Below are positions 8,469 to 33,032 of a stretch of 64,000 nt of DNA, piece by piece (position 1 is the stretch's first letter; each line of letters opens with the position of its first letter). The notes below the pieces were generated by a model that did not search any database, was not told the DNA's origin, and saw only the letters and a program-made list of their open reading frames with translations. Made by a program: the position numbers and the translations under genes. Origin of the DNA: Candidatus Abyssobacteria bacterium SURF_5 (lineage in GTDB: Bacteria; Abyssobacteria; SURF-5); NCBI GenBank assembly GCA_003598085.1, contig QZKU01000026.1, positions 7,335 to 71,334 on the forward strand, written 5' to 3'.

Positions 8469-9815
8469 TCATTTCCCGCTGACGACTACATCGGTGACGA
8501 GAAACGAGGGCGAGCCGTATCGGCTGTAGAATTTCAGGTTTCGCGCGACCGCCTCGATATTCATCAGGACATCCCTTACGTTGCCCGCAATGGTCGTCTC
8601 TCGCACGGGGAATGCAGGTTTTCCGTTCTCGATCCACAGCCCGCTTGCGCCGACTGAGAAATCGCCTGAGACCATGTCTATCGTGTGCATGCCCATCGCA
8701 TCGGTCACTAAAAAACCGCGCGAGCAGTTATCGCACAGATTGTCAGGATCGGTGTCGCCCGGAACAAGATAAAAATTCGTCGCGCCGACTTCGGGCGTCG
8801 ATGCATATGAGGAGCGGACGCCGTTGCCGGTTGATTCGGTGCCGCCTTTTGCCGCCGTATACGTGTCGTAGAGGAAGCCCTGCAGGACACCCGCCTCAAC
8901 CAGAACCGTCCGCTTCGAAGCTACTCCCTCTCCATCGGCCGGCGCGGGATACAGCCCGCGTTCAAACATGCCGTCATCTATAATCGTGACGTTCCGGTTT
9001 GCCATTTGCCTGCCGACTTTATCGGCGAACAGCGACTTGCCTTTCTGCACCTGGTCCGCCATGAGCGCGTGCCCGATTGCCGCAACGAACTCGGCCGCGA
9101 CCGGAGCATCAAGGATAATCGGAACCTTCGCCGTCTCGATTTGCCGCGCCCCGAGCAGACTGAGCGCGCGCCTGCTTGCATTCCTGCCGACAGGCGCGAC
9201 ATCGAGCGCGCTGAAATAGAAGGAGTGATCGAAATCCCACCCCATTTGGGCGTCTCCTCCTTCTTCAGCGACCACCATCACGCTCGCGGCGCATGAGGTG
9301 CCCCGACTCCACAGCGATATCCCCTTGCTGTTCGCCAGGTGCGCCTCATAGCTTGCATCTGAAGCGGTCGCCTGCCGGACCTTCGTTATCCGCTTGTCGA
9401 CTGCCCGCGCGGCGCCTTCGAGATTGAGCGCGCGCTCGATCCGGTCATCAAGTCCCACGTCTTTAAGCTGCTCGTCAAACTTCTCTATTTCTATATACCG
9501 CGGAGATGGCCTCGGAAGCACGTTGAATTCATCCGGAGAACTCGATTCCGCATTCGCCAGGGCTTGCCTGGCCGCCGATTCTATAGCGGAATTACCCAGA
9601 TCGGACGTATACGCAAACCCCAGCCGATTCGCGACAAGCACGCGCACTCCAATGCCCGAGCCTTCGCGCACCTTCTGGCTTTCAACCTTGCCGCCGCTCA
9701 CTTCGACCGAGACCGAGCTTGTCCGGTTGAAGAATCCTTCGGCCTCCGTGGCGCCGGCCGAAAGCGCCGCTTCAATGGCCAGCTTTACCTTTCGCTCATC
9801 CGATTTTCTCGTCAT
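8469..9815 (-). CDS. TldD/PmbA family metalloprotease
   Basis: 448 aa with typical PmbA/TldD N-terminal (KLAIEAALSAGATEAEGFF...SVSVEVSGGKVESQ) and C-terminal (GDFSVGASGLWIENGK) signatures. Confidence 0.8.
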   Translation of the reverse strand: MTRKSDERKVKLAIEAALSAGATEAEGFFNRTSSVSVEVSGGKVESQKVREGSGIGVRVLVANRLGFAYTSDLGNSAIESAARQALANAESSSPDEFNVLPRPSPRYIEIEKFDEQLKDVGLDDRIERALNLEGAARAVDKRITKVRQATASDASYEAHLANSKGISLWSRGTSCAASVMVVAEEGGDAQMGWDFDHSFYFSALDVAPVGRNASRRALSLLGARQIETAKVPIILDAPVAAEFVAAIGHALMADQVQKGKSLFADKVGRQMANRNVTIIDDGMFERGLYPAPADGEGVASKRTVLVEAGVLQGFLYDTYTAAKGGTESTGNGVRSSYASTPEVGATNFYLVPGDTDPDNLCDNCSRGFLVTDAMGMHTIDMVSGDFSVGASGLWIENGKPAFPVRETTIAGNVRDVLMNIEAVARNLKFYSRYGSPSFLVTDVVVSGK

Positions 9816-10612
9816 TGTTTCACCGCCTTCACGAGCTGCGAAACGAAGTGGGAAACCCGCTCGATAAGATCAGGGGCGGCCGCGTTCTCTTCGATTTTCT
9901 TCACTATCGCAGAGCCGACGACAACCGCATCGGCATACCCGGCAACCTCCGCCGCCAGCGCCGGATTCGAAATGCCGAACCCGACGGCGACGGGCATTCC
10001 CGAGCGGGTGCGAATTCTTTCGACCATCGAGGAAATGCCGCCGGCCATTTTCTCTTGAAAGCCGGTGACGCCCTCGCGCGAAACGTAATAGATGAATCCG
10101 CTGCTGAAGCGCGAGATCAGATCGATTCGCTCATCGGTGCTGGTCGGCGCGAGCAGATACACGGTGCTCAAGTCCTTCATATCCATGAGCGCCTTGTAAT
10201 CCTTCGATTCCTCCGGCGGCAGGTCAAGCACCAGCGCGCCGTCAACTCCCGCATCCGCCGCCTGCGCCACAAATGTCTCGATCCCGAGATGGTGAATCGG
10301 ATTGAAGTAGCTGAAGAAGATGATCGGTATCTGCGACTCCGCGCGGATCTGCTTGACCGTCTCCAGCACCTTTTTCAGCGTTGTCCCGCGATGGAGCGCT
10401 CGCTCGGCCGCCCGCTGATTAACCGCTCCATCGGCGAGCGGATCGGAAAACGGTATCCCCAACTCGACCAAATCCACTCCGATACGATCGAACTCGATAA
10501 CCAGCCTGCGCGTCGCCTCGAGCGTCGGGTCACCCGCAGTAATATACGCGATAAAGCCGCTCCGCCCGCTTCGCTTCAAAGCTTCAAATGTTTGCGCAAC
10601 GCGATTCTGCAT
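9812..10612 (-). CDS. trpA: Tryptophan synthase alpha chain
   Basis: FIAYITAGDP, VDLVELGIPFSDPLADG and GFGISNP motifs; 266 aa. Confidence 0.9.
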   Translation of the reverse strand: MQNRVAQTFEALKRSGRSGFIAYITAGDPTLEATRRLVIEFDRIGVDLVELGIPFSDPLADGAVNQRAAERALHRGTTLKKVLETVKQIRAESQIPIIFFSYFNPIHHLGIETFVAQAADAGVDGALVLDLPPEESKDYKALMDMKDLSTVYLLAPTSTDERIDLISRFSSGFIYYVSREGVTGFQEKMAGGISSMVERIRTRSGMPVAVGFGISNPALAAEVAGYADAVVVGSAIVKKIEENAAAPDLIERVSHFVSQLVKAVKQ

Positions 10613-11829
10613 TACCTGTCCTTGTTCGCGAGGATTTCAGAAACCACCTGCACGTCCTTATCGCCGCGGCCGCTGAGGTTTATGATGACGCTGTCCGCAC
10701 GGTTCATTTGCTGCGCGATTTTAACGGCATGTGCGACTGCATGCGAGCTTTCGAGCGCAGGAATAATGCCCTCGACCCTGCCCAGCAACTGAAAGGCGGC
10801 AAGCGCCTCTTCATCCGTGACCGCCGTATAGTCGATCCGTTTCCGGTCGCGCAGATAACTGTGTTCGGGTCCGACACTGGCATAGTCCAGGCCCGCAGAG
10901 ACTGAATGTGTCAACCCGATCTGGCCGTCGGCGGTCTGCAAAACGTAGCTCATGCAGCCTTGCAGAACCCCCAACTCGCCGCTCGCAAAACGAGCGGCAT
11001 GCTTTCCCGTGTCGATGCCGAGGCCGCCCGCCTCGACGCCGATCATCTTTACCTGTTCATCCTGCAGGAAATCGTAAAACAGACCGATCGAGTTGCTGCC
11101 ACCCCCAACGCACGCGATCAGCAGGGCCGGCAGCCTTCCTTCTTTCTCGAGAATCTGCCGGCGCGCCTCTTGCCCGATTACGCGCTGAAAATCGCGCACC
11201 ATCATCGGATACGGGTGCGCACCGAGAACTGAGCCGAGTATGTAATGAGTGGTGCGTACGTTCGTCACCCAGTCGCGCATGGCCTCGTTGATGGCATCCT
11301 TCAACGTCTTGCTGCCCGAATCGACCGGTGTCACTTTCGATCCGAGAAGACGCATGCGAAATACATTGAGCGCCTGGCGGCGCATATCTTCTTCGCCCAT
11401 GTAGATCTCGCATTCGAATCCGAAGAGGGCGGCAACCGTCGCCGTCGCGACTCCGTGCTGCCCGGCCCCCGTCTCCGCAATAATACGCGTCTTACCCATG
11501 CGCTTCGCCAGGAGCGCCTGCCCTACGGTGTTGTTGATCTTGTGAGCCCCCGTGTGACACAGGTCTTCGCGCTTCAAATATATTTTTGCGCCGCCGAGCC
11601 GTTCCGTCAAGCGGCGGGCGAAAAACAGAGGAGTGGGCCGACCGGCATACTCCGTTAGGTAGTACGAAAGTTCGCGCTGAAAATCCGGGTCTTCCTTGTG
11701 CGCTCGATACGCGTCTTCCAGTTCTTTGAGCGGCGACATCAGGGTCTCCGGAACATATTTGCCGCCATAGGGACCGAAGTGACCGCCGCTGTCAGGCAAC
11801 ATAGGATTTTGCCCTCCGAATGAAATCAT
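10612..11829 (-). CDS. trpB: Tryptophan synthase beta chain
   Basis: [25 protein letters not shown] (PLP lysine) and [10 protein letters not shown] motifs; 405 aa. Confidence 0.92.
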
Positions 11830-12418
11830 GCACTTTCTGGGGATCTTTCCAACCGGGTGAAGCCTCGATGCCGCTGGAGACGTCGACGGCGTCCGGCGAA
11901 GCGACTTTAATGGCTTCGGCCACGTTTTCCGGAGTCAGACCCCCCGAAAGAATGATCGGGCGCCCAAGCGTCTTCGCTTTCGTTGCGAGGGTCCAGTCAA
12001 AAACTTTCCCGGTGCCACCCGCCATTCCCGGCACTTTCGTATCAAGCAAAATATAAGCTGCCGAGGAGCGCTCAATGAGCTCCAAGTCCGCCTCCTTCGC
12101 CACCGAAACAACCCGGATGAATTGCGCCGGATGGAATCCGGCATACCAGATGCGCTCTTCGTCATCTCCATGATACTGAATGTAGTCGAGGCCGACCAGG
12201 TCGAATATGTCGCGGGCATAAGAAGGATCGGGCTCGACAAATACCCCCACCACCGATACGAACGGCGGCAGACGCCGCCGAATGGCTACTGCAGTCTCCG
12301 GCGCTACCTGTCGCGGGCTTGGGGCGAAGATAAGACCAACGGCGTCCGCTCCGTTTGCAGCGGCCCACAGAGCGTCCTCAAGATGGGTAACGCCGCAAAT
12401 CTTTACCCTAACCATCAA
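11792..12418 (-). CDS. trpF: Phosphoribosylanthranilate isomerase
   Basis: VKICGVT...GADAVGLIF (PRAI TIM-barrel signature); 208 aa; overlaps trpB and trpC. Confidence 0.85.
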
Positions 12419-13181
12419 GCAGCTCCCGCATTTTTCGCTGAATATCCGGACTGGTCACCAGCGCCTCTCCCACGAGAATGGCGTCGACGCCGGCGTCCCG
12501 CAACATCCTCACGTCGCCTGCCGTACTTATCCCGCTTTCACTCACTAAAATTATGCCGTCGGGAACTCGCGGCGCGAGTTCGAGCGTTGTGGCAAGCCTT
12601 GTTTCGAAGGTGCGAAGATCCCTGTTGTTGATTCCGATAATGCCGGCCTTCGCTTCGAGCGCCGCATCGAGTTGCTCCGCGTCGTGAGCTTCAACCAGCG
12701 CGTCCAGTCCCAACTCCGAAGAGAGCGCCACAAAGTTGCGCAACGACTTCCGGTCAAGGGCCGCGACAATCAGCAAAACCGCGTCGCCCCCAATCACCAG
12801 GCTCTCCCACAACTGGTATTCATCGATCACAAAATCTTTTCTAAGCACCGGCAGCCGGGATACCCGCTTTGCAATGCGCAAATAGGAGGGATCGCCCTGG
12901 AAATATTTCCGATCGGTCAGAACCGATAACGCGGACGCTCCCCCGCAGGCATAGACATCTGCAAGACGCGCCGGATCGAAATCCGCGCTCAACAGCCCTT
13001 TCGAAGGCGACGCCTTCTTTATCTCCGCGATCAGCTTGATGCCGTCTACGGAACGAATCGCGCCGGCAAAAAAACCGCCTGGCCCTCTCTCGGCTTTTTT
13101 CTTCAGTTCAGGCAGGGGCGTCCGCTCTTTGGCCTCGGCGACTTCTCGGCGTTTATGCGCAAGGATGTCATCGAGTATCAC
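12408..13181 (-). CDS. trpC: Indole-3-glycerol phosphate synthase
   Basis: ILDDILAHKRREV...IAEIKKASPSKG...LSVLTD...IGINNRDL signature; 257 aa. Confidence 0.9.
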   Translation of the reverse strand: MILDDILAHKRREVAEAKERTPLPELKKKAERGPGGFFAGAIRSVDGIKLIAEIKKASPSKGLLSADFDPARLADVYACGGASALSVLTDRKYFQGDPSYLRIAKRVSRLPVLRKDFVIDEYQLWESLVIGGDAVLLIVAALDRKSLRNFVALSSELGLDALVEAHDAEQLDAALEAKAGIIGINNRDLRTFETRLATTLELAPRVPDGIILVSESGISTAGDVRMLRDAGVDAILVGEALVTSPDIQRKMRELLDG

Positions 13182-14197
13182 CGCGCCGATACCTCGCGCA
13201 GCCGCCGCAGTTTTTCCAATGCGGCGCCGGAATCAATTGAGCTTGCGGCCGCTTCGATACCGTCGGCCACAGATTCGACTTTCCCGGCGGCAATAAGAGC
13301 GAAGGCAACGTTCAGGAGGACGATGTCGCGGCGGGCGCCTTCTTCGCCTTTCAATATAGCTTCGATGATTCTCGCGTTGGCGGCCGGATCTCCTCCGGAC
13401 AGCGCCTCCCTCCGCGATCGCTTGATTCCCAATTCGGCGGGATCGAATTCATAGGTCGTCACCTTTCCATCTCTGACTTCCGCTATGAACGAGGTGGAAG
13501 TGACGGTTATCTCATCAAGCCCGTCGGCCCCGCAAACCACAAACGCATGACGGGTGCCCAGATTTCTGAGTACATGAGCCAACGGCTCAAGAAAGCTGCG
13601 ATCGCACACCCCGATTACCTGCGCATCGGCAAACGCGGGATTGGAGATGGGTCCGAGAATGTTGAAAACGGTTCGAATGCCGATCTCGCGCCTCGGCCCG
13701 ACGGCATATTTCATGGCGCCGTGGTATAGAGGTGCAAACATGAACCCAAAACCCACTTCGTCAATCGACTGCTCGACTGCAGAGGGTTCGGCCTCGATTC
13801 GGATGCCCAGTTGCTCAAGGACGTCGGCGCTCCCGCAGAGGCTGGACATGCCGCGATTGCCATGCTTCGCAACCGCCACCCCCGCTCCCGCCGCAACAAA
13901 TGCGGCAGCTGTCGAAACATTGAAGGTGCCCGCCCCGTCTCCGCCGGTACCGCAAGTATCCACCAGCGGTCGGCGCTTCGGGTTCAAGCGGATGACTTTG
14001 TCGCGCATCACCTGCGCGCAGCCGGTGATTTCCTCAACCGTCTCGCCCTTCATCCGCAGCGACACGAGAAAAGCCGCGATTTGTGCGGGAGTCGCTCTGC
14101 CACTCATGATTTCGTCCATTGCAGCGGCAGCCTCGCCGGTTGATAGATTCTTCCTGTCGCACGTTTTCTTGAGGAATTCCTTGAACATGACGATCAC
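13178..14197 (-). CDS. trpD: Anthranilate phosphoribosyltransferase
   Basis: DTCGTGGDGAGTFNVSTAAAFVAAGAGVAVAKHGNR signature; 339 aa; its start overlaps the purE stop by 4 nt. Confidence 0.9.
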   Translation of the reverse strand: MIVMFKEFLKKTCDRKNLSTGEAAAAMDEIMSGRATPAQIAAFLVSLRMKGETVEEITGCAQVMRDKVIRLNPKRRPLVDTCGTGGDGAGTFNVSTAAAFVAAGAGVAVAKHGNRGMSSLCGSADVLEQLGIRIEAEPSAVEQSIDEVGFGFMFAPLYHGAMKYAVGPRREIGIRTVFNILGPISNPAFADAQVIGVCDRSFLEPLAHVLRNLGTRHAFVVCGADGLDEITVTSTSFIAEVRDGKVTTYEFDPAELGIKRSRREALSGGDPAANARIIEAILKGEEGARRDIVLLNVAFALIAAGKVESVADGIEAAASSIDSGAALEKLRRLREVSAR

Positions 14198-14718
14198 CCG
14201 GCGTGTTTGGAAATTTCCCGCTGCAGCGCTTTCTCTTTCTGTTCGACGGATCCAGCGAGATGAGCTTTATAAGCGGTGAGTTTCTTGCGGAGACGACCAT
14301 CGCCAAGCGCCAGTATCTGGACAGCCAACAATCCTGCGTTGCGCGCACCGGCCTTGCCAACCGCCATAGTCGCTACCGGCACTCCGGCAGGCATTTGTAT
14401 TGTTGAGAGGAGAGCGTCGAGCCCTTTCAATGGGGAAGAATCTATCGGCACCCCGATAACGGGAAGCGTCGTATGAGCGGCTATCATGCCGGCAAGATGC
14501 GCAGCGGCGCCCGCCCCGGCAATTATCACCTTTATCCCGTTTTCGGCCGCGCCTTCAGTGAGCGCAATGGTTCGTTTCGGCGAACGGTGCGCCGAAGACA
14601 CCTTCATGTCGTAGCCGACACCGAATTCATCAAGTATGTCGGCCGTTTCGCGCATGATCGCATGGTCGCTTTCGCTTCCCATGAAGATGTAAACCATCTT
14701 TTTTACCGCCTTCGGCAT
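14194..14718 (-). CDS. purE: N5-carboxyaminoimidazole ribonucleotide mutase
   Basis: VYIFMGSESD...SAHRSP...IIAGAGAAAHLAGM (PurE class I); 174 aa. Confidence 0.9.
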   Translation of the reverse strand: MPKAVKKMVYIFMGSESDHAIMRETADILDEFGVGYDMKVSSAHRSPKRTIALTEGAAENGIKVIIAGAGAAAHLAGMIAAHTTLPVIGVPIDSSPLKGLDALLSTIQMPAGVPVATMAVGKAGARNAGLLAVQILALGDGRLRKKLTAYKAHLAGSVEQKEKALQREISKHAG

Positions 14719-16005
14719 TTATGAATCCCTTTCGAGACGCGCCAGAGCTTTCTTGCCGATGTCGGAGCGGAAATATCTGCCCTCGAATCGGATTGTTTCG
14801 GCGCACTGGTATGCGCGCTCGATGGCGGAGGGGATGTCCTCGCCAAGGGCCGTAGCTCCGATCACGCGCCCACCGTCGGTGACAACCTGGCCGTCTTTCA
14901 ATTCCGTGCCGGCATGAAAAACAATGGCGCCGGCCACTTTTCGCGCGTTTTCCAATCCTGTGATTCGCATCCCCTTCTTGTATTTTCCCGGATATCCGCC
15001 GGATGCCAGGACAACACAAACTGCGGCATCGTCTGTCCATTCGGCCTGCATGTCGCTCAGCGTGCCGTCCGCACATGCGAGCATGAGAGGAACGAGATCG
15101 CTCTTGAGACGCGGAATGACGACCTGCGCTTCAGGATCGCCGAAGCGAACGTTATATTCAAGCACTTTCGGACCGGCTTCGGTCATCATGATTCCACAAT
15201 AAATCACGCCACGATATTCGCAACCCTCGTGCCGGAGAGCATCGATGGTAGGTCGAATTATCTGATTCTCAATATGTTCGAGAAGCGTCGGACTGACGAC
15301 GGGGGCCGGCGAATACGCGCCCATTCCGCCCGTGTTCGGCCCTTTGTCGCCGTCGTAGATGGCCTTGTGGTCCTGCGACGCGGGCATTGTCAGAATGTTC
15401 CTGCCGTCGGTAAAAGCGAGCACCGACGCCTCTTCGCCCTGCAGAAACTCCTCGATCACGATCCTGCTGCCGGCGCGCCCGAAAGCCCCCTCAACCAGGC
15501 ACTGATTGACCGCCGAAAGGGCGACTTTCTCATCAAAGGCAACAATGACTCCTTTTCCGGCGGCCAAACCGTCTGCCTTTATCACAACCGGCGTTCCGAT
15601 CTCATGCACGAATTCGGCCGCCTCTTCGGCCTCGCAGAACGTGTGAAAAGTCCCGGTGGGGATGTTGTATTTCGCCATCAGCTTCTTCGCGAAAATCTTG
15701 CTCCCCTCCAGCAGCGCAGCCTCTGCCCGCGGCCCAAAAGCCCTTAGGCCGCGCTCGCTCAGCTTATCAACCACTCCCTCGACAAGCGGCGCCTCGGGAC
15801 CAACCACCGTGAGGTCTATCTTCTCCTTTTCCGCAAAGGCGACGAGCTTCTCCGTATCGGTCGCCTTGACATTCACGCATTCCCCAAGCTCGGCTATTCC
15901 TGCATTTCCGGGAGCACAAAATATCTTTTTCACAAGAGGGCTCTGGCTTATCTTCCAGACGAGGGCGTGCTCTCTTCCGCCCCCTCCGATAACCAATATT
16001 TTCAT
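14719..16005 (-). CDS. purD: Phosphoribosylamine--glycine ligase
   Basis: MKILVIGGGGREHAL..., ATP-grasp core; 428 aa. Confidence 0.92.
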   Translation of the reverse strand: MKILVIGGGGREHALVWKISQSPLVKKIFCAPGNAGIAELGECVNVKATDTEKLVAFAEKEKIDLTVVGPEAPLVEGVVDKLSERGLRAFGPRAEAALLEGSKIFAKKLMAKYNIPTGTFHTFCEAEEAAEFVHEIGTPVVIKADGLAAGKGVIVAFDEKVALSAVNQCLVEGAFGRAGSRIVIEEFLQGEEASVLAFTDGRNILTMPASQDHKAIYDGDKGPNTGGMGAYSPAPVVSPTLLEHIENQIIRPTIDALRHEGCEYRGVIYCGIMMTEAGPKVLEYNVRFGDPEAQVVIPRLKSDLVPLMLACADGTLSDMQAEWTDDAAVCVVLASGGYPGKYKKGMRITGLENARKVAGAIVFHAGTELKDGQVVTDGGRVIGATALGEDIPSAIERAYQCAETIRFEGRYFRSDIGKKALARLERDS

Positions 16006-16025
16006 GGCGAGCCTCCTTGCTATTC

Positions 16026-17603
16026 CTAATGCTTGAAATGCCGCATGCCGGTGATGATCATCGCAATATCATGTTCATTGGCGGCGGCAATGACCTCATC
16101 GTCTTTTTTTGAGCCGCCGGTCTGGATGATCGCCCTGATGCCGGCCTCGGCGGCCGCATCAACGCCGTCACGGAACGGGAAGAACGCATCGGAAGCAAGC
16201 ACTCCGCCCTTGGCGCGCCCGGCGGACTTGTGAGCGGCAATCATACTGGAATCAACGCGGCTCATCTGGCCGGCGCCGACCCCGAAGACCGTGAAATCCT
16301 TTGCATACACAATCGCGTTCGATTTCACGTGCTTGCAAATGACCCACGCGAAAAGCAGGTCCTTCATTTCCTTTTCCGTCGGCTTGCGCTTCGTGACGAG
16401 CTTGAACTGCGACTGGTCGTACGTCGCCCGATCGAAATCCTGCAGCAGCATACCGCCGACTACGCGCCGCATGTTCGGCGCGCTGTCACGAGCGCCGCCC
16501 AACTCGCCGACGGCAAGAACCCTGAGGCTCTCGCCCCACCATTGCCGCGTTTTCAGCACCTCGAGCGCCTCCTTGGCAAACGAGGGAGCGATGATCGCTT
16601 CAATAAACGTGTTCGGCTTCGCCATCAACTCCGCCGCCTTGAGATCGATGTGGCGGTTCGCGCCGACGATGCTGCCGAACGCTGACACCGGATCCCCAAG
16701 CAGCGCGCGCGAATACGCCTCATGGATGTCATTGCCGACGCCGGCGCCGCATGGATTCGTATGCTTGATAATCACCGCAGTCGGCTCCTGGAAATCCTTA
16801 ACGATTTCCAGAGCGGCGTCCAGATCAAGAATATTATTGTAGGAGAGCGTCTTGCCATGCAGCATCTCGGCCGTGGACACGCTCGGCTCCTTCGCATTCG
16901 GATCGACATAGAAAGCGGCCGACTGGTGCGGGTTCTCACCATACCGCAGGTCCGCCTGTTTCCGGAATTGGATGTTGAGCATTGCAGGATATTTGCCGCC
17001 CTTCTTGTCCACAGCGGCAAGATAATCGGCAATCGCGCGATCATATGTGGCCGTATGTTCGAAGACCTCGCACGCCAGATCAAATTTCAGCTTCTCCGGA
17101 ACTTTGCCGCCTCCCCTTTTCATCTCCTCGATGATCTGCCCATATCGCGCCGGATTCACCACCACCACCACATCGCGATAATTTTTTGCCGCCGCTCGCA
17201 GCATCGTGGGCCCGCCGATGTCAATCTGCTCGATCGCGTCTTCCAGTTCGACGTTCGGCTTCGAAATCGTCTCCTGGAATGGATACAGGTTGACGACTAC
17301 CATGTCGATCAGCTCGATACCGTGCCGGTCAACCTGCTGCATGTGCTCGAGGTTGTCCCTGAGCGCAAGCAGCCCGGCGTGAATCTTGGGGTGCAGCGTT
17401 TTCACGCGCCCATCCATCATCTCGGGGAATCCCGTGTAATCGGAAACCGAACGAACCGGCACTCCGGCCTGGTCAAGAGTCCGCTGAGTACCGCCGGTTG
17501 AAAGAATTTCAACCCCCACTCCGGCCAGGAATCTGGCAAACTCGACAATCCCGGCTTTGTTGGAAACGCTCAAAAGCGCGCGTTGTATCTTATTGGCAGG
17601 CAT
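16026..17603 (-). CDS. purH: Bifunctional AICAR transformylase / IMP cyclohydrolase
   Basis: [15 protein letters not shown]...STGGT (MGS-like IMPCH domain) plus the AICARFT domain; 525 aa. Confidence 0.92.
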
Positions 17604-21033: not shown

Positions 21034-21053
21034 ATGAACCCTACTTGAAAAAG

Positions 21054-21746: not shown

Positions 21747-21791
21747 TGATCTCTTTGTCCCTCCCTTGTCTTCCGTTATTCCTTCTCATTA

Positions 21792-22976: not shown

Positions 22977-22982
22977 TTGCTC

Positions 22983-25331: not shown

Positions 25332-25350
25332 AGATGCACTTTTTACAACC

Positions 25351-28300
25351 TCACCAGTTCAGCGGCTGCTGCCATGCCCGCTTCAATTGGAATATATCGG
25401 CTGAAAGGATCTTTTGTCTGCCATTTTTCAAGACCAGGAGTGGAGATCGTGTTACTTTTCCCGCTCTGGCAAATGGGACTCCATCCATCATTTGTTCAAA
25501 CTCTTTCGCTTTTCGAGGAGGAACAGTTATCACGAACCGGCTCTGGGACTCGGAGAATAGCAGGTAATCGGCGCGCAGAGGTTCAGGCTGCGGAACGGCG
25601 GACAGATCGGCCGTGATGCCGAATCCGCCGGCAAAGGCGCTTTCCGCAAGCGCGACTCCGAGACCGCCGTCGGAGCAGTCGTGGCACGAGGCGATCAGGC
25701 GGCGATCGATCGCATCCGATACTCTTGAATAAATCTGTCTTGCAAGCTGAGAATTCACCCGCGGTACTGAATTCCCGATGAACCCGTGGTGCGCGAAGTA
25801 TTCGCTGCCGCCCAGTTCATTCTTCGTCACGCCGACCACGTATACGAGGTGGCTTGGCCGCTTCACGTCCATCGAAACGACTTTGCGCACGTCCTCGATC
25901 CGCCCGAGCACCGAGAACAGGAGCGTGGGCGGCACCGATATCTTGATGTCGCCGATCATGTAATCGTTCTTCATGCTGTCCTTGCCCGAGATGCAGGGAA
26001 CATCGTACGCCGTACAATAGTCGTAAAGCGCCATGTTCGAACGGACAAGCTGCGCGAGTTTGTAGTACCCGTCGGGCGTCTTCTCCGATTGCACAGGATC
26101 GGGCCAGCAGAAGTTGTCGAGTCCGGCCAGATACCCAAGCCGGCCGCCGACAGAAATCGCATTTCTCACCGCCTCGTCGATAGCGCAGGCGGTCATGTGA
26201 TATGTGTCGAGGTCGCTGTAGCGCGGGCAGATGCCGCTCGCAACGACCACGCCTTCATATGAATCATACAGAGGCTTCAGGACGGCTGCATCGCCGGGCC
26301 CGTCATTGGAGCTGCCGATAAACGGCTTGAGCGCGCTCAAGCCCTGGACCTCATGATCGTATTGCCGTACAAACGACTCTTTGCTGCACACGTTCAGCCG
26401 CGCCAGCATCTGCTCCAGCAAACGGTTGTAGTCCTGCGGCTCGGGAAGGTCCGGCTCTTCGTGCTTCGGCGCCTTCCAGCGCGCCTGCAAATTCATTCTC
26501 GGCACGCCCTCATGCAGGAAATCCATGTCGAGGTGAGCAACCACCTTACTTTCGTACAGAACCTCAAATTTGCCGGAATCGGCAAATGTTCCAAGCACCG
26601 TCGCTTCGACGTCGCGCCTCCTGGCCAGTTCGAGAAAGCGATCGATCTTTTCGGGATCAACCGCGAGCGTCATTCGCTCCTGCGCTTCCGATAGCAGGAT
26701 TTCCCACGGCTGCAGGCCCTTATATTTCAAGGGCGCCTTCTCAAGTTCGATCCGGCATCCGTTGGAGAAGCGCGCCATTTCGCCGACCGACGACGAAAGG
26801 CCGCCGGCGCCGTTGTCCGTGATCGCGCGGTACAATCCCAGATCGCGGGCCTCAAGCAGGAAATCGGTCATCTTCTTCTGCGTGATCGCGTCGCCGATCT
26901 GAACCGCCGACGTCGGCGACTCGCTGTGAAGTTCTTCGGATGAAAAGGTGGCGCCGTGAATGCCGTCCTTGCCGATCCGACCGCCGGTCATCACGATCAG
27001 GTCGCCCGGCAAAGCGGTCTTTTCATGCGCCGGCTCGCCGAGTATCTCCTTCGGCATGAGCCCGCCTGTCCCGCAGAACACGAGCGGCTTGCCCGCGTAA
27101 CGGTCGTCAAAGAGGATGCTGCCGTTGACATCCGGAATCCCGCTCTGGTTTGCGCCGTCGCGCACGCCACGGTGCACGCCCTTGAAGATGCGCTTCGGAT
27201 GGAGCAGGCGGGGCGGGAGAGGCTTGTCATAATCCGGTGGAGCGAAACAGAACGTGTCCACATTGAAAATCAGACGACACCCCTTGCCGGTGCCGAAAGG
27301 ATCACGGTTGACGCCGACGATGCCGGTTACCGCGCCGCCGTATGGATCGAGAGCTGACGGGCTGTTGTGCGTTTCCACCTTCATGACCAGGTTCCACCTG
27401 TCATTGAAGCGGATGACTCCGGCATTGTCGTGGAAAACCGATACCAGCCACGGAACCCGCTTGGAAATCTCGTCGGTCGAACGTCTGATATACGTCTTGA
27501 ACAGGCCGTTGATTTGGCGCCGGCCCTGTTCGTCCTCATAATCGATGAAGGCGTTGAATATCTTGTGCTTGCAATGTTCCGACCACGTCTGCGCAATGCA
27601 TTCCAGTTCGACGTCTGTCGGCTGATTCGAAAGTCCGTACCTGCTGCGATCGCGAATCGCGTTTTCGCTGCGAAAATAATTGCGGATCACCCGCATCTCA
27701 TCGAGACTGAGCGAAAGGATCCCCTCGCGGCTGATGCGTATCAGCTCCTGGTCGGACACAGCAAGATCGAAAGCCTTGACATGGACTGGCTGCGGTGTCC
27801 CTGCCAACGGAAGCGGGAGTGAGATGCCGCCGGAACGGCGGAATTCATCGGCGTCGGCGATGCGCCACTGTTCGATCAGGCCGTTGGCCAGCAGCCCGCC
27901 GGCGATTCTCTCAACCTGAGCCCGCTCCAGGCGGCCCCGCAAAACATATTGTTTGGCGGTGAAGACGGTGCTCCCGTCCGCGCGCTCTCCAAAGATATCG
28001 ATCATCGCCTCGCGCGAAGTCTTGCCTACATTATCGGTGACTCCGGGTTTGAAGCCGATTTCGATGACCCACGAGAAATCAGAGGCCAGAGGCTGGTCGA
28101 GCGTGGACACATCGATGACGGGATCGGCGAACAGGTGCGTGCGAAGCATGTCGGCGTCGTCGCATCTCAGGCTGGTCAACAGCGTGTATACCCGTATTAG
28201 CCGCGCGTCGTCGACGGCGATATGCAGGTCTTCCACGATATTTTTTCGAATGGCGTCGCCCGCGGCATCGAATTGATCGCGCCGCAGCCCGACTTCTATT

Positions 28301-28380
28301 CTGTAGGTATTAAGATCAATCACGGTTACCGCCGGTACTTTACCTTCCCTGTCCCCGAAACTATTCGCCCGATAGTCCAA
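25351..28380 (-). CDS. purL: Phosphoribosylformylglycinamidine synthase subunit PurL with N-terminal PurS-like domain(s) fused. The annotated start is TTG; an alternative GTG at 28323 sits 2 nt after the purM stop
   Basis: AIR-synthase-related domains (SFGDREG..., PurM-like repeats) with an N-terminus resembling PurS (KPGVTDNVGKTSREAMIDI); 1009 aa. Confidence 0.85.
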   Translation of the reverse strand: MDYRANSFGDREGKVPAVTVIDLNTYRIEVGLRRDQFDAAGDAIRKNIVEDLHIAVDDARLIRVYTLLTSLRCDDADMLRTHLFADPVIDVSTLDQPLASDFSWVIEIGFKPGVTDNVGKTSREAMIDIFGERADGSTVFTAKQYVLRGRLERAQVERIAGGLLANGLIEQWRIADADEFRRSGGISLPLPLAGTPQPVHVKAFDLAVSDQELIRISREGILSLSLDEMRVIRNYFRSENAIRDRSRYGLSNQPTDVELECIAQTWSEHCKHKIFNAFIDYEDEQGRRQINGLFKTYIRRSTDEISKRVPWLVSVFHDNAGVIRFNDRWNLVMKVETHNSPSALDPYGGAVTGIVGVNRDPFGTGKGCRLIFNVDTFCFAPPDYDKPLPPRLLHPKRIFKGVHRGVRDGANQSGIPDVNGSILFDDRYAGKPLVFCGTGGLMPKEILGEPAHEKTALPGDLIVMTGGRIGKDGIHGATFSSEELHSESPTSAVQIGDAITQKKMTDFLLEARDLGLYRAITDNGAGGLSSSVGEMARFSNGCRIELEKAPLKYKGLQPWEILLSEAQERMTLAVDPEKIDRFLELARRRDVEATVLGTFADSGKFEVLYESKVVAHLDMDFLHEGVPRMNLQARWKAPKHEEPDLPEPQDYNRLLEQMLARLNVCSKESFVRQYDHEVQGLSALKPFIGSSNDGPGDAAVLKPLYDSYEGVVVASGICPRYSDLDTYHMTACAIDEAVRNAISVGGRLGYLAGLDNFCWPDPVQSEKTPDGYYKLAQLVRSNMALYDYCTAYDVPCISGKDSMKNDYMIGDIKISVPPTLLFSVLGRIEDVRKVVSMDVKRPSHLVYVVGVTKNELGGSEYFAHHGFIGNSVPRVNSQLARQIYSRVSDAIDRRLIASCHDCSDGGLGVALAESAFAGGFGITADLSAVPQPEPLRADYLLFSESQSRFVITVPPRKAKEFEQMMDGVPFARAGKVTRSPLLVLKNGRQKILSADIFQLKRAWQQPLNW

Positions 28381-29366
28381 ACGGTCTCGCCTTGTGCGTC
28401 CAGATATGAAAGCGTTTCTTCCTCGTCGGCGGGCGATACAATAACGACCATGCCGACGCCCATGTTGAACGTGCGCAGCATTTCGCCCTCATCGATATCG
28501 CCTTCCTGCTGGATGAATTGAAATATCGAGAGCGGCCTCAACGATGCCATATTTATTTCCGCATCGACCGCCTTCGGCAGCACCCGAGGCACATTATCGG
28601 TCAATCCGCCGCCGGTGATATGCGCCATCCCTCGAATCAGATTCTTATCGAGAAGCCCGCGCACCGCCCGCGCATAACAGCGGTGGGGCTCGAGCAACTC
28701 GTCCGCCAGCGTCTTCCCGAGCGCATCCACTCTTTGATCCAGTCGATACCTTCCCGAATCCACCAGCAGCTTGCGCACCAGCGAATATCCGTTGGTATGG
28801 AGGCCCGAAGACTGCACTGCAACTATCACGTCGTCCTTTCGGATGGCTGAGCCGTCAATGATCTTATGCTTATCGACAACCCCAATGATCGTTCCGGCCA
28901 GGTCATACTCGCCCGGCTGGTAAAAATCGGGCATCTCGGCTGTCTCGCCGCCGATCAGCGAACATCCCGCCGCCCGGCAGCCTTCCGCCAACCCTGAGAT
29001 CACCTGCTCGGCAATATCGACATCGAGCTTGCCCATCGCGAGGTAATCCAGGAAAAATAAGGCCTCCGCCCCCTGCATCAAAATGTCGTTCACGCAATGA
29101 GAAACCAGATCGATTCCGACAGTATTATGCCGGCCGGTCACAAATGCGATCTTCAGCTTTGTGCCGACTCCGTCAACACTCGAAACAAGAATGGGCTCCC
29201 GATAGCGCGCGCTGTCAAACCGGAACAGGCCGCCGAACAATCCGATATCCTGCACCACGTTCGCGGAAAACGTCGAGCGCGCAAGCGGAACGATACGCCG
29301 CTTCAGCGAGCTTGCGGCTTCGATGTCGACTCCGGCTTGCTTATAGGTGAACGGTTCTTGTGTCAT
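28326..29366 (-). CDS. purM: Phosphoribosylformylglycinamidine cyclo-ligase (AIR synthetase)
   Basis: YKQAGVDIEA...VSSVDGVGTKLKIA...AHITGGGL signature; 346 aa. Confidence 0.92.
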   Translation of the reverse strand: MTQEPFTYKQAGVDIEAASSLKRRIVPLARSTFSANVVQDIGLFGGLFRFDSARYREPILVSSVDGVGTKLKIAFVTGRHNTVGIDLVSHCVNDILMQGAEALFFLDYLAMGKLDVDIAEQVISGLAEGCRAAGCSLIGGETAEMPDFYQPGEYDLAGTIIGVVDKHKIIDGSAIRKDDVIVAVQSSGLHTNGYSLVRKLLVDSGRYRLDQRVDALGKTLADELLEPHRCYARAVRGLLDKNLIRGMAHITGGGLTDNVPRVLPKAVDAEINMASLRPLSIFQFIQQEGDIDEGEMLRTFNMGVGMVVIVSPADEEETLSYLDAQGETVWTIGRIVSGTGKVKYRR

Positions 29367-30832
29367 GTCAGGTTGATGGTTACCGGATTCCGCTTGCGGT
29401 CGAGATAATATTTGTCAAAGTCCACCTTCAGGCTGATCGGATATCGGCCGGAAAAGCAGGCGATGCAGTATTTGTTCCAGTCGCCGCCCGCAGCCTCTAT
29501 CAGGCCTTCCTTGCTGAGGTAGTGAAGCGAGTCCACACGGAGATACTTCCGAATTTCTTCAAGGTTGTGGCTGGAAGCTATCAGTTCCTTCCGGGTAGGC
29601 GTATCGATCCCGTAAAAGCAGGGATGCGTAATCGGGGGCGAGCTGATACGCATATGAATCTCTTTTGCGCCCGCATTGCGGATCATCTTGACGATCTTTC
29701 GACTGGTGGTCCCGCGCACGATGGAATCGTCCACGACGACCACGCGCTTTCCTCTCAGCGCCCCTTTGAGCGCATTATATTTGATCTTGGCGCCGAAATC
29801 GCGGATCGTCTGCGACGGCTCGATAAAGGTGCGCCCGATATAATGATTCCGTATCAAACCCATGACAAACGGGATACCCGATTCATGCGAGTAGCCGATG
29901 GCGGCGGCATTGGAAGAGTCAGGCACCGGCAGAACCAGGTCGGCCTCGATCGGGTTTTCCCGATACAATGTTGCGCCAAGAGCGTGGCGTACGCGTTCAA
30001 CGTCGTATCCGAATATGACGCTGTCGGGACGAGAAAAATAAATCAGCTCAAAGATGCATAGACCGGTCCGAGCGGGTTTCGTTCCACCGATACTCATCGA
30101 ATGAACACCCGAACGATTGATCAGAAGCATCTCTCCCGGCTCGATATCGCGGATATATTTGGCGTCGACAATATCGAATGCGCAGCTCTCCGAGGCAACC
30201 ACATGGGCGCCCTTTAGAATGCCGAGACACAGAGGCCTGAACCCATAGGCATCGCGCGCAGCTATCAGGTTTTCCGTGTCCATCGCAAGAATCGAATAGG
30301 CCCCTTTGACCCGCCGCAATGCCTCCGCAAAAGCCGATGGTAAATCATGCTTTCTCGAGCGCGCCACCAGATGTACAATCACTTCACTGTCGCTCGTGGA
30401 TTGAAAGATCGAGCCCTTCCCTTCAAGTTCCGAACGCAAAACGCGCGCATTCACAAGATTGCCATTATGCGCAACCGCTAGCGGGCCTTTCGCGTAATCC
30501 ACCAGTATCGGTTGCGCATTTTTCAGAAGGCTTGAGCCGGCAGTGGAATAACGTACGTGGCCGATGGCTGTGTCGCCGGGAAGGCTGTCCAGGGTGTCTT
30601 TCTTGAAAACATCATAAACCATTCCCATTGCGCGGTGACTGTGGAGGCGATGTTCATGCGCCGAAACGATGCCGGCGCTTTCCTGACCGCGATGCTGCAG
30701 CGCGTACAGCCCGAGATAAGCAATTCTCGCGGCTTCCGGATGGCCGAAAACGCCGAAGATGCCGCACTCATGCTTCAAAAACTCGGCTTCCGACGCCGCA
30801 TCAAAGTCACGGGAATCGCGAGAATGTTTCAT
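29363..30832 (-). CDS. purF: Amidophosphoribosyltransferase
   Basis: N-terminal nucleophile CGIFGVFGH, PRTase motif VVVDDSIVRGTT, C-terminal Fe-S cysteines; 489 aa. Confidence 0.92.
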   Translation of the reverse strand: MKHSRDSRDFDAASEAEFLKHECGIFGVFGHPEAARIAYLGLYALQHRGQESAGIVSAHEHRLHSHRAMGMVYDVFKKDTLDSLPGDTAIGHVRYSTAGSSLLKNAQPILVDYAKGPLAVAHNGNLVNARVLRSELEGKGSIFQSTSDSEVIVHLVARSRKHDLPSAFAEALRRVKGAYSILAMDTENLIAARDAYGFRPLCLGILKGAHVVASESCAFDIVDAKYIRDIEPGEMLLINRSGVHSMSIGGTKPARTGLCIFELIYFSRPDSVIFGYDVERVRHALGATLYRENPIEADLVLPVPDSSNAAAIGYSHESGIPFVMGLIRNHYIGRTFIEPSQTIRDFGAKIKYNALKGALRGKRVVVVDDSIVRGTTSRKIVKMIRNAGAKEIHMRISSPPITHPCFYGIDTPTRKELIASSHNLEEIRKYLRVDSLHYLSKEGLIEAAGGDWNKYCIACFSGRYPISLKVDFDKYYLDRKRNPVTINLT

Positions 30833-30835
30833 GTG

Positions 30836-31738
30836 CTACACGTTCCTTCCCGTCAGCAGCTTAAATGCCTGTTTGTATTTTTCTTCCGTTCGCGCCACAA
30901 CGTCCGGCGGCAACTCCGGCGCCGGCGGAGTCTTGTCCCAATCGAGTGTCTCAAGATAATCACGCACGTATTGCTTGTCGAAATTCATCTGCGGTTTCCC
31001 CACCTCGTAGCTCTCCGCGAGCCAATACCGGGAGGAATCCGGCGTCAGCAGCTCATCGATCAGCAAAACGGCGCCGTCATACTCGCCGAACTCGAATTTT
31101 GTGTCCGACAGGATTAATCCTCGAGACGCGGCGAACTCGCTTGCCTTCTTGTAAATCAGCACGCTCTTCTCAGCAAGCAAATTTGCCTTTTCCGGCCCGA
31201 TTATCTTCTTGGTCTCCGCAAATGAAATGTTGACATCATGACCGCTTTCCGCTTTCGTTGCGGGCGTGAAAATCGGCTCGGGCAGCTTCTCCGATTCCCG
31301 CAATCCGGCGGGGAGCGTGATGCCGCACACGCACTTGCTTTGCTGGTACTCTTTCACCGCCGAACCCGCCAAATAGCCCCGCACCACGCATTCTATGGGA
31401 AAAGGTTTGCTCTTCTTGACGAGCATCGATCGGCCCCGAAGAACATCTGCGTATGGCCGCGTGGCACGCGGATATTCATCCACATCGACTGAAAGAACCT
31501 GGTTCGGAATGATGTCCTGCACAAAGTCAAACCAGAACTTGGATAACGCGGTCAGCACCTTCCCTTTATTTGGAATCCCATTGGGAAGAATACAGTCAAA
31601 CGCCGAAATGCGGTCGGTTGCAACCAGCAGCAGGTGGCCGTCCACCTCGTAGACGTCGCGCACCTTCCCGCGCCGGTGCAGTTTAAGACCGCTGAAGTCC
31701 GTCCGAAGCACAACGGATGAATTCGATTTCTTACGCAC
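30836..31738 (-). CDS. purC: Phosphoribosylaminoimidazole-succinocarboxamide synthase
   Basis: GKVRDVYEVD...LLVATDRISAFD signature; 300 aa. Confidence 0.9.
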   Translation of the reverse strand: MRKKSNSSVVLRTDFSGLKLHRRGKVRDVYEVDGHLLLVATDRISAFDCILPNGIPNKGKVLTALSKFWFDFVQDIIPNQVLSVDVDEYPRATRPYADVLRGRSMLVKKSKPFPIECVVRGYLAGSAVKEYQQSKCVCGITLPAGLRESEKLPEPIFTPATKAESGHDVNISFAETKKIIGPEKANLLAEKSVLIYKKASEFAASRGLILSDTKFEFGEYDGAVLLIDELLTPDSSRYWLAESYEVGKPQMNFDKQYVRDYLETLDWDKTPPAPELPPDVVARTEEKYKQAFKLLTGRNV

Positions 31739-33032
31739 TGTTCAAGCCCGCCCTTTGAAAGATTTGATCAACGAACCGAAGGTGATGCTGCAAATCAAAG
31801 CACTCGTCCAATTCTTGCTCCGAAAGGCGCGACATGATATCGCGGTCCGCAAGGAGCGCCCGGCGGAAATCCATGCCCTCCGCCCATACCTTCATCGCGT
31901 TCCGCTGGACCAATCCGTACGCCTCTTCCCGCGTCAGCCCCTTCCCCACCAGTTCCAGAAGGATGCGTTCGGAAAAAAACATTCCCTTGGTCTTCTCAAG
32001 ATTCGCGCGCATGTTGTCGGGATAAACCAGCAGCTTTTTTATGATGCCTGTGAACCGCGCAAGCAGATAGTCAATCAGGATGCAGCTGTCCGGAATGATG
32101 ACGCGCTCGACCGAAGAATGCGAGATGTCGCGCTCGTGCCAGAGCGCTATGTTTTCAAGCGCCGCCATCGCATTGGCGCGGACGACGCGAGCCAGCCCCG
32201 AAATCTGCTCGCACCGGATCGGGTTGCGCTTGTGCGGCATCGCAGATGACCCTTTCTGGCCCTTCTCGAAATACTCTTCCGCCTCCAGAATCTCCGTACG
32301 CTGAAGACTCCTGACCTCGGTGGCGAATTTATCGAGAGAACTTGCAATCAAAGCGAGAGCCGTCATGAAGTCCGCATGCCGGTCGCGTTGAATGATCTGC
32401 GTGCTCACCTGCGCCGCTTTCAATCCCAGCTTGTCGCAGACATATTGCTCGACGCGCGGGTCCGAATGAGCGAACGTGCCGACCGCGCCGGATACCTTCC
32501 CGACGCTAATGACCTGCTTCGCCCGCTCCATCCGCTCGAGATTCCGCTGAGTCTCGGTGTACCAGAGCGCCATCTTGAGGCCGAACGTGATCGGCTCCGC
32601 GTGCACGCCATGCGATCGCCCGATCATAACCGTATTCTTGTGCTCGAGCGCTCGTTCCTTCAGTACGCCGAGCAGATCGTTCAAATCGCGGATGACGAGG
32701 TCGCTCGCCTCGCGCAGGTTCACCGCGAGCGCCGTATCCAGCATGTCGGAGGACGTGAGCCCGAAGTGCATGAACCTTGAATCCGGCCCGACATGCTCTC
32801 CAACAGCGGTGAGAAACGCAATGACGTCATGCTTCGTTACATCCTCAATCTCGGCCACTCGCTCAGCCGAAAAATTCGCTTTCTCTTTTATGGTCGCCAG
32901 CGCCTGGGCCGGTATCTTGCCAAGCTGCGCCCACGCCTCGCACGCCAGAAGCTCCACCCGGAGCCACGTGCGCAGCTTGTGCTCTTCAGTCCAAATGCCG
33001 GCCATCTCCGGCCGGGAATACCGTGGTATCAT
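31731..33032 (-). CDS. purB: Adenylosuccinate lyase
   Basis: RYSRPEM..IW and the fumarate-lyase signature GSSAMPHKRNP; 433 aa. Confidence 0.92.
   Translation of the reverse strand: MIPRYSRPEMAGIWTEEHKLRTWLRVELLACEAWAQLGKIPAQALATIKEKANFSAERVAEIEDVTKHDVIAFLTAVGEHVGPDSRFMHFGLTSSDMLDTALAVNLREASDLVIRDLNDLLGVLKERALEHKNTVMIGRSHGVHAEPITFGLKMALWYTETQRNLERMERAKQVISVGKVSGAVGTFAHSDPRVEQYVCDKLGLKAAQVSTQIIQRDRHADFMTALALIASSLDKFATEVRSLQRTEILEAEEYFEKGQKGSSAMPHKRNPIRCEQISGLARVVRANAMAALENIALWHERDISHSSVERVIIPDSCILIDYLLARFTGIIKKLLVYPDNMRANLEKTKGMFFSERILLELVGKGLTREEAYGLVQRNAMKVWAEGMDFRRALLADRDIMSRLSEQELDECFDLQHHLRFVDQIFQRAGLNSA

Follow-up and report, generated by a model that had tools for sequence, protein, structure and literature searches.

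Purine and tryptophan genes in a probable mixed-function operon of Candidatus Abyssobacteria, with a putatively acquired DpdA-type cassette

In Bacillus subtilis the purine genes form the pur operon, purEKBCSQLFMNHD, and the aromatic supraoperon of the same organism, aroFBH-trpEDCFBA-hisC-tyrA-aroE, holds overlapping trp genes within a longer multi-pathway unit that is read through from an upstream promoter. The canonical trp operon has the order trpE-G-D-C-F-B-A behind a leader. In Sinorhizobium meliloti an attenuator is present on trpE(G) alone, and trpDC and trpFBA are found in mixed operons with unrelated genes (PMC6614838). Here we describe a locus from Candidatus Abyssobacteria bacterium SURF_5, on a stretch of 64,000 nucleotides (nt) of contig QZKU01000026.1 (assembly GCA_003598085.1, forward-strand positions 7,335 to 71,334), which is called the window hereafter and from whose first letter all positions are counted. 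The source is a deep-subsurface metagenome-assembled genome (MAG) of a class within Ca. Hydrogenedentota (PMC6121073); the paper describing the MAG, including its supplements, does not mention tryptophan, anthranilate or purine. In this window trpD-C-F-B-A and a gene for a PmbA-family peptidase are joined to the 3′ end of what appears to be a purine operon (purB-C-F-M-L-Q-H-D-E, in which PurL includes PurS), and a five-gene cassette lies between purL and purQ. On sequence evidence the pur genes, trpDCFBA and pmbA probably form a co-transcribed, lineage-specific mixed-function operon of the class Ca. Abyssobacteria. No description of a purE-trpD or pur-trp operon was found in the searchable literature, where 'pure' also matches the English word.

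As in the B. subtilis pur operon, the purine genes make a near-complete, co-directional and tightly spaced unit, the formylglycinamidine ribonucleotide (FGAM) synthase is made of PurS, PurQ and PurL parts, and a single promoter (here a predicted one) stands before the first gene. However, the order is B-C-F-M-L-Q-H-D-E, purK and purN are outside the cluster, PurS is fused to PurL, the leader has no guanine riboswitch or other Rfam element, and five trp genes and the peptidase gene are appended. The overlapping trp genes within a longer multi-pathway unit are reminiscent of the aromatic supraoperon, except that the partner there belongs to the same aromatic super-pathway and here is purine synthesis. 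Also, the supraoperon keeps trpE and a leader controlled by TRAP (trp RNA-binding attenuation protein), whereas the Abyssobacteria cluster has neither trpE/G nor a leader. With the mixed operons of S. meliloti it shares a trpE(G) that is set apart and other trp genes that are placed beside unrelated genes with no attenuator of their own, but trpD-C-F-B-A is intact as a block and its partner is a nine-gene purine operon upstream instead of single unrelated genes. Relative to the canonical trp operon, trpD, C, F, B and A are likewise contiguous, in pathway order and with coupled stop and start codons, but purE takes the 5′ position of trpE/trpG and the leader is missing. The gene order is real, unusual and not seen outside the class, and it is a variation on mixed-function operons that holds no mechanistic surprise. 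It can be explained without any new mechanism and raises no long-standing question; the cassette adds most of the remaining curiosity. If one transcript is made, this would be an unusually long operon (~27 kb, 23 genes) joining two unrelated pathways and fixed across a candidate class. For operon evolution it would give a dated case of a trp operon that lost trpEG and was captured by another operon, as well as a natural example in which a foreign cassette of 6.9 kb entered an essential operon and left it in one piece. For the annotation of Abyssobacteria and Hydrogenedentota genomes, the conserved promoter motif and the corrected start codons are of use.

All substantial open reading frames (ORFs) from 33032 to 8469 are on the minus strand, and purB-C-F-M-L, five low-GC genes and purQ-H-D-E-trpD-C-F-B-A-pmbA follow each other in an unbroken chain, with the pur and trp genes spanning 9812-33032 (Table 1). 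The nine pur genes and trpD, C, B and A score above the curated NCBIfam equivalog cut-offs, the exception being trpF, whose best model falls 0.7 bits short. An earlier note on this DNA had described a pur block physically joined to a trp block on one strand, and the gene models and spacings agree with it. Its count of 15 biosynthetic genes does not hold: there are 14 ORFs, and 15 functions are obtained only on counting the PurS-like domain that is fused to PurL. The absence of trpE/trpG from the cluster, which it had also stated, is seen again here, as tblastn over the 64-kb window gave a best E of 0.9 for TrpE/TrpG, and neither was found in any Abyssobacteria locus. Among the other large ORFs of the window, Pfam annotation gave none with a pur or trp identity. 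That trpD might instead be a paralogue outside tryptophan synthesis (YbiB/TrpD2 or a purine-salvage nucleoside phosphorylase) was considered and rejected, given 432 bits for the TrpD equivalog vs 62 for YbiB (cut-off 185) and the presence of trpCFBA downstream. As regards the 3′ end, the chain had been proposed to continue into TldD/PmbA. The 4-nt overlap with trpA is indeed present, but there is only one gene of the PmbA/TldD family, and the next gene (6775-8418) codes for an unclassified membrane protein. Nor does the chain end at pmbA: the co-directional run goes on through the membrane protein and an aminotransferase to 5675, where a convergent gene stops it. No second TldD/PmbA partner is seen near pmbA, and we know of no link between the PmbA/TldD peptidases and tryptophan synthesis.

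The same gene order was then looked up in related genomes. A homology search with TrpD gave a clade of ~50 sequence clusters at 67-85% identity, followed by a gap down to <=60%. Six relatives from separate assemblies provided the context of trpD (loci L081, L082, L084/85, L086 from SURF_17, L087 and L088-90), and their TrpD is 71-77% identical to that of the window. Two further lineages were reached via PurB (L173 and L174-176); it may be noted that L081 and L173 are the same contig (L081 5180-5747 = L173 17693-18260). A metagenome scan with a PurQ alignment returned mainly outgroups and short contigs and added two short Abyssobacteria fragments. The order purF-M-L-Q-H-D-E-trpD-C-F-B-A is present in 6 of the 6 relatives that span the junction, and pmbA, the membrane protein and the aminotransferase come next wherever the contig reaches (the last two genes also in L082, L083, L084 and L087). 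Towards the 5′ end, L173 and L174-176 have the acyltransferase gene followed by purB-C-F-M-L-Q-H-D. As outgroup a set of 82 loci was used. It contains 80 GTDB loci from a profile scan of genome contigs, in which the matches listed have distant TrpD only (47-56% identical, none above 56%) and serve as an outgroup sample, and two loci with TrpD 60% identical. In none of the 80 GTDB loci listed does purE adjoin trpD, and the adjacency is absent from the other two as well. On taking those listed GTDB loci that have at least 2.5 kb upstream of trpD (71 loci), trpG was found directly upstream in 66 and trpE in 1. The PurQ outgroups have purL-purQ alone or other arrangements; in one case (L121) purQ-H-D-E is followed by unrelated ORFs. 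Since the pur-trp fusion is present in all six relatives and in none of the 82 outgroup loci, we interpret it as a synapomorphy of the Abyssobacteria clade, in which trpDCFBA-pmbA would have lost its 5′ trpEG and come to sit behind purE. The comparison of the purE-trpD junction across related genomes, which the earlier note had recommended, therefore finds it kept in all six.

All spacings use start codons refined against homologues. Between native neighbours of the pur block the spacing goes from 8 nt of overlap to a gap of 20 nt, apart from the 6.9-kb insertion at purL-purQ. Overlaps of 1-11 nt and gaps of <=20 nt had been claimed for the whole chain, and this is correct for the native junctions but not for two spacers that touch the cassette, of 45 and 35 nt. 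For purL the start at GTG 28323 is likely, though the ORF is open to TTG 28380, giving a PurL of ~990-1009 amino acids (aa). At purE/trpD the 4-nt overlap proposed before is possible with GTG 14197. However, TrpD homologues all begin with M-[F/L]-K-E at the position of ATG 14188 and the NCBI annotation has the 336-aa form, because of which a TGA-TCGTC-ATG junction with a 5-nt gap appears more likely than the GTGA overlap. With either start the space between purE and trpD is too small for a regulatory element.

In the relatives the overlaps downstream of trpD recur. That of trpD/trpC (4 nt) is present in 5 of 6 (L081, L084, L086, L087 and L088; in L082 the gene caller chose an earlier trpC start), and those of trpF/trpB (11 nt) and trpA/pmbA (4 nt) are present in 4 of the 4 that reach these junctions (L082, L084, L086, L087). 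The 8-nt overlap of purB/purC is likewise present in 2 of 2 (L173, L174). The purE-trpD spacer is short in the window and L081 (5 nt) and in L088 and L086 (15-17 nt), but long in L084 (~108 nt), L087 (~127 nt) and L082 (~403 nt). Tight coupling at purE-trpD is thus not a conserved feature, given the three long spacers, and the trpA/pmbA overlap is kept more strictly than this junction. Spacers within the pur block vary likewise (purM-purL from a 1-nt overlap to 235 nt, purH-purD 11-163 nt). Since the variability at purE-trpD (5-403 nt) is no greater than at these pur-internal junctions, it is not singled out as a unit boundary. In L082 both the purE-trpD spacer (9598-10000, 403 nt) and the purL-purQ spacer (4892-5164, 273 nt) are made up of palindromic and duplicated repeat units, e.g. 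GGGGCGAACCTTGTGTTCGCCC...GGGCGAACACAAGGTTCGCCCC, that resemble miniature inverted-repeat transposable elements (MITE) or repetitive extragenic palindromic (REP) elements.

Promoters were scanned with the sigma-70 consensus and scored out of 12. The acyltransferase gene and purB are 111 nt apart. The predicted purB promoter is within this spacer, and its -35 hexamer overlaps the acyltransferase stop codon. Its motif is kept at the same distance in L173 (TTGACG-18-TATCAT) and L174 (TTGACG-17-TATGAT), so the three lineages share TTGAC[T/G]-17/18-TAT[C/G]AT with the TG. Between 39000 and 3000 only three minus-strand sites score at least 10/12, at 38754, 35186 and 33147, and the chain itself has no site of this score. 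Among the sigma-70-like matches of the region the one at 35158-35186 on the minus strand is the best (TTGACA-17-TATCAT with an upstream TG, 11/12); it is upstream of a trio of genes that precedes purB (a T2SSF_N-like gene, a small ORF and the acyltransferase). As there is no terminator between this trio and purB, transcription from upstream could run on into the pur genes. Terminator-like matches in the chain are weak and all intragenic, with none intergenic, and no sense-strand terminator was found where the purE-trpD spacer is wide (L082, L084 and L087). Internal promoter-like matches, too, are intragenic and no more than chance would give, except for one 9/12 site in the inserted repeat of L082. 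The promoter and terminator prediction across the chain that the earlier note had suggested therefore recovers the purB promoter and gives no comparable internal promoter and no intergenic terminator.

The folding energy of the presumed purB leader does not stand out from that of shuffled sequences (z = -0.5). It is partly conserved between the window and L173 but not in L174, and a short stretch just 3′ of the -10 element is alike in the window and L173. With Rfam no riboswitch, T-box or leader was found, there being no match at gathering thresholds in the whole window and none at E <= 1 in 5000-36500; for PurR boxes and other protein operators the sequence was read by eye only. The earlier statement that a trp leader or attenuator is absent agrees with this result and with the mere 5-nt gap or 4-nt overlap before trpD. 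A missing trp leader is to be expected where trpE(G) is separated, as in S. meliloti (PMC6614838).

Under the reading that we consider probable, one long polycistronic RNA would start at the conserved sigma-70-type promoter upstream of purB, and ribosomes would move from gene to gene via stop and start codons that overlap or almost touch, also at trpD, where purE occupies the place that trpE/trpG have in other bacteria. As the trp genes here have no tryptophan-sensing leader, control of the tryptophan flux would rest on an anthranilate synthase encoded elsewhere. The support for co-transcription comes from spacing, consensus scans and synteny, and several observations weigh against it. Synteny extends past the promoter (T2SSF_N-like gene, small ORF, acyltransferase) and past pmbA (membrane protein, aminotransferase), so conserved order alone does not delimit an operon. 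One transcript would need to cross ~27 kb, of which 6.9 kb are foreign and AT-rich, and to escape early (e.g. Rho-dependent) termination, which is much to ask. The Shine-Dalgarno sequence of purQ has been lost. The scan does not see other sigma factors or weak promoters within coding sequence. The chain may then be physical clustering only, made of several units with internal promoters of these unseen kinds, so that 'super-operon' would be an overstatement. We consider this unlikely, though it deserves the most weight among the alternatives. It fits with the fact that everything from ~38.9 kb to 5.7 kb is co-directional while functions are mixed without relation (lipid acyltransferase, purine, tryptophan, peptidase, a glycosylation-type membrane protein, aminotransferase). 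The overlap of the purB promoter with an upstream stop codon implies that promoters of this lineage can sit in very short spacers; the spacers of the relatives are wide (108-403 nt at purE-trpD, 24-568 nt at purL-purQ); and the ~403-nt spacer of L082 is an inserted palindromic repeat that bears a 9/12 promoter-like site. Also canonical intrinsic terminators are scarce window-wide, so their absence inside the chain says little. Yet the purE-trpD interval of the window and of L081 is too short to contain a promoter, and within 600 nt upstream of trpD no site of at least 9/12 is found in 6 of 7 genomes (the window and 5 of 6 relatives), while the same scan recovers the purB promoter in 3 of 3. 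The wide spacers of L084, L087 and L082 have no sequence in common, that of L082 being the inserted repeat, and stop/start overlaps are continuous from trpD to pmbA.

Another rival is an artefact of assembly, i.e. a metagenomic chimera at the pur-trp junction or at the low-GC cassette. The source is a MAG with 4% estimated contamination (PMC6121073) and the GC content of the cassette is 15 points under that of its flanks. But six further assemblies, made from different samples and with different pipelines, have the same purE-trpD junction, by which a misassembly at this point, named earlier as a possible refutation, is excluded. As for the cassette, both of its edges lie exactly in the purL-purQ spacer, and purL and purQ are adjacent in every relative and outgroup examined. 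A chimera would need to enter and exit at one intergenic point, in the same orientation and with the flanking genes intact. Since the foreign DNA enters and leaves at a single point between genes that are adjacent elsewhere, a chimeric cassette appears unlikely, and artefact as an explanation of the locus is very improbable. A further possibility accepts the operon and gives a reason for it, namely selected metabolic coupling, in which PurF and TrpD draw on one pool of phosphoribosyl pyrophosphate (PRPP) and a single PRPP- or purine-sensing regulator at the purB promoter would set both pathways. Both PRPP-consuming enzymes are within the chain, the fusion is kept class-wide down to ~70% TrpD identity, and the stretch just 3′ of the -10 element that is alike in the window and L173 could be an operator. 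However, no RNA element sensing PRPP, purine or ZTP (5-aminoimidazole-4-carboxamide ribonucleoside triphosphate) and no T-box was found with Rfam, the leader similarity is missing in L174, and the cluster has neither a regulator gene nor a prs gene. The peptidase, membrane-protein and aminotransferase genes are chained as tightly, so that adjacency need not reflect shared metabolism, and mixed trp operons with no metabolic logic exist, such as ppiD-trpDC-moaC-moeA of S. meliloti (PMC6614838). Shared PRPP is a plausible candidate reason for the fusion, and coupling through one regulator we hold to be improbable, clearly less so than artefact and clearly more so than separate units.

The cassette (18479-25331, minus strand, 6.9 kb, five genes) has an overall GC content of 41%, with 0.40-0.42 for its genes vs 0.54-0.59 for the flanks and sharp shifts at the purL stop and the purQ start. 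Its last protein is a fusion in which an N-terminal DUF6884 domain (Pfam 3.5e-10) precedes DpdA (also PADLOC DpdA, 2.3e-102). DUF6884 is a YaaA-like DNA-binding domain with the motifs CxxxK and LSAxxG (PMC11701544), and both motifs are present here. For each of the five proteins a homologue of 30-39% identity is encoded in a single dpdA cluster on the Bradyrhizobium plasmid pB41S5, with the layout helicase and nuclease, dpdB-dpdA-dpdB-queE-queD-queC, and hypothetical protein-HAD. The identities are 37% for the nuclease, with the counterpart that adjoins the helicase on pB41S5, 38% for the membrane protein, with the hypothetical protein, and 36% for the HAD hydrolase. For the helicase, counterparts close to dpdA are present on plasmids of Picosynechococcus (43% identity) and Bradyrhizobium (39%), and a homologous helicase-nuclease pair neighbours dpdA on three plasmids (pB41S5 and two others). 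The cassette helicase matches GajB/UvrD-type models, and no Dpd helicase model is among the best 25 of 49 PADLOC families. In the five proteins no significant match to DpdB, DpdC or queC/D/E was obtained, the only DpdC hit being at E = 0.005 on the DpdA fusion. DpdA is thus shared with the known Dpd clusters (dpdA-K of Salmonella Montevideo, PMC10164549, and the pB41S5 variant), but unlike these the cassette has no DpdB, DpdC or queC/D/E, its DpdA has the N-terminal DUF6884, and it is inside a housekeeping operon instead of on a genomic island or plasmid. It is predicted to be a reduced DpdA-type 7-deazaguanine DNA-modification or defence cluster, without DpdB and the genes for synthesis of 7-cyano-7-deazaguanine (preQ0).

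The earlier note had counted these genes as members of the chain. They are contiguous and on the same strand, but they form a foreign insertion of 41% GC, and 0 of the five genes has a homologue in the loci of the relatives. We interpret the cassette as a horizontally acquired insertion that, among the genomes compared, is in this one only and was not part of the ancestral operon. Signs of mobility in the form of terminal direct or inverted repeats, an integrase or a transposase were not seen, and no close relatives of the cassette were found in IMG/VR. In the relatives the purL-purQ spacer measures 24, 61, 116, 232 or 273 nt, and 500-568 nt in L081 and L086, which makes it the most variable of the operon, with repeated insertions: a GxxExxY element in two relatives, repeats in another and the DpdA cassette here. 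The small GxxExxY gene (TIGR04256 / PDDEXK_3) in this spacer of L081 (5180-5747) and L086 (6075-6578) is flanked by ~30-nt inverted repeats of CGCAAAG units, which suggests a small mobile element; this inverted repeat was not found in the window. Within the cassette neither a strong promoter nor a strong terminator is predicted. Being co-oriented and free of recognisable terminators, it could be crossed by read-through from the purB promoter into purQHDE-trpDCFBA, by which it would itself be expressed; we take this as the simplest view. The 35 nt upstream of purQ are AT-rich, belong to the cassette side and have no Shine-Dalgarno motif, in which they differ from purQ of the relatives. One may go further and propose that the 14-gene housekeeping operon hosts and transcriptionally drives an acquired defence or DNA-modification module, with purL-purQ as a recurrent landing site of mobile genes, a proposal that we regard as doubtful. 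If true, a DNA modification that replaces guanine would be tied to the pathway that makes its precursor, which derives from guanosine triphosphate (GTP), and very long mixed operons of slow-growing subsurface bacteria would tolerate and exploit insertions in their middle.

Table 1. Features of the pur-trp chain and its surroundings, in the order of the minus strand. Scores are given as bits/cut-off; the junction is that with the next gene. SAICAR, succinylaminoimidazole carboxamide ribonucleotide; AIR, aminoimidazole ribonucleotide; AICAR, aminoimidazole carboxamide ribonucleotide; IMP, inosine monophosphate; GAR, glycinamide ribonucleotide; N5-CAIR, N5-carboxyaminoimidazole ribonucleotide; PRAI, phosphoribosylanthranilate isomerase; SF1, superfamily 1.
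Feature	Positions	Strand	Junction	Remarks
Predicted sigma-70-type promoter	33118..33147	-		TTGACT-18 nt-TATCAT, TG before -10; 10/12 match
Presumed purB 5′ untranslated leader	33033..33117	-		no recognisable riboswitch or attenuator
purB, adenylosuccinate lyase	31731..33032	-	8-nt overlap, purC GTG start over purB stop	TIGR00928, 561.7/326
purC, SAICAR synthase	30836..31738	-	3-nt gap	GTG start; NF010568, 406.7/251
purF, amidophosphoribosyltransferase (PRPP user)	29363..30832	-	4-nt overlap	TIGR01134, 527/350
purM, AIR synthase	28326..29366	-	2-nt gap with GTG 28323; TTG 28380 (longest ORF) would give 55-nt overlap	TIGR00878, 423/236
purL, FGAM synthase large subunit with N-terminal PurS-like domain	25351..28323	-	19-nt gap	TIGR01736, 529.7/525.75; Pfam PurS, FGAR-AT_linker, AIRS, AIRS_C
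Cassette gene 1, UvrD-like SF1 helicase	22983..25331	-	6-nt gap	Pfam UvrD-helicase 2e-45; GC 0.42
Cassette gene 2, PD-(D/E)XK (Cas4-like) nuclease	21792..22976	-	45-nt gap	Pfam PDDEXK_1 5e-10
Cassette gene 3, multi-pass membrane protein, weakly PycTM-like	21054..21746	-	20-nt gap (HAD ATG at 21033)	PADLOC PycTM 7e-10; Pfam PycTM under cut-off
Cassette gene 4, HAD-family hydrolase	20212..21033	-	4-nt overlap	Pfam HAD_2, Hydrolase
Cassette gene 5, DUF6884 (YaaA-like DNA-binding) + DpdA (DNA guanine transglycosylase) fusion	18479..20215	-	35-nt gap	NF041059, 362.6/200
purQ, FGAM synthase glutaminase subunit	17622..18443	-	18-nt gap	TIGR01737, 184.5/177.8
purH, AICAR formyltransferase / IMP cyclohydrolase	16026..17603	-	20-nt gap	NF002049, 734/402
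purD, GAR synthetase	14719..16005	-	0	TIGR00877, 566/288
purE, N5-CAIR mutase (SAHR motif)	14194..14718	-	5-nt gap (ATG 14188) or 4-nt overlap (GTG 14197)	TIGR01162, 197/150
purE/trpD junction	14186..14197	-		G-GTG-A-TCGTC-ATG
trpD, anthranilate phosphoribosyltransferase (PRPP user)	13178..14188	-	4-nt overlap	TIGR01245, 432/199
trpC, indole-3-glycerol-phosphate synthase	12408..13181	-	8-nt overlap	NF001377, 322/260
trpF, phosphoribosylanthranilate isomerase	11792..12415	-	11-nt overlap	NF002298, 214.3/215; twelve other PRAI models match; Pfam PRAI in orthologues
trpB, tryptophan synthase beta	10612..11802	-	1-nt overlap	TIGR00263, 639/392; likely start ATG 11802, GGAGGG before
trpA, tryptophan synthase alpha	9812..10612	-	4-nt overlap	TIGR00262, 259/102
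PmbA/TldD-family metallopeptidase	8469..9815	-	50-nt gap	Pfam PmbA_TldD domains 1-3; best NCBIfam match PmbA, under cut-off
Unclassified membrane protein, 547 aa	6775..8418	-	4-nt overlap	
DegT/LegC-type aminotransferase	5675..6778	-		

A few minor observations concern single pur genes. The SAHR motif of PurE is typical of class I N5-CAIR mutases, yet neither the cluster nor the rest of the 64-kb window has purK or the GAR transformylase genes purN/purT. In L174 guaB and guaA (1046-4198) precede purB on its strand at a distance of ~6-9 kb, with glycosyltransferase-type genes between, and they are not present in the window. Variants of purH occur in the relatives. In SURF_17 (L086, 7404-8169) only a 200-aa N-terminal part is present before purD. 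In L088/L089 (6259-8039) two separate genes take its place, one for an IMP cyclohydrolase of 202 aa and one for an AICAR formyltransferase of 391 aa, the latter only 27% identical to the corresponding domain of the window.

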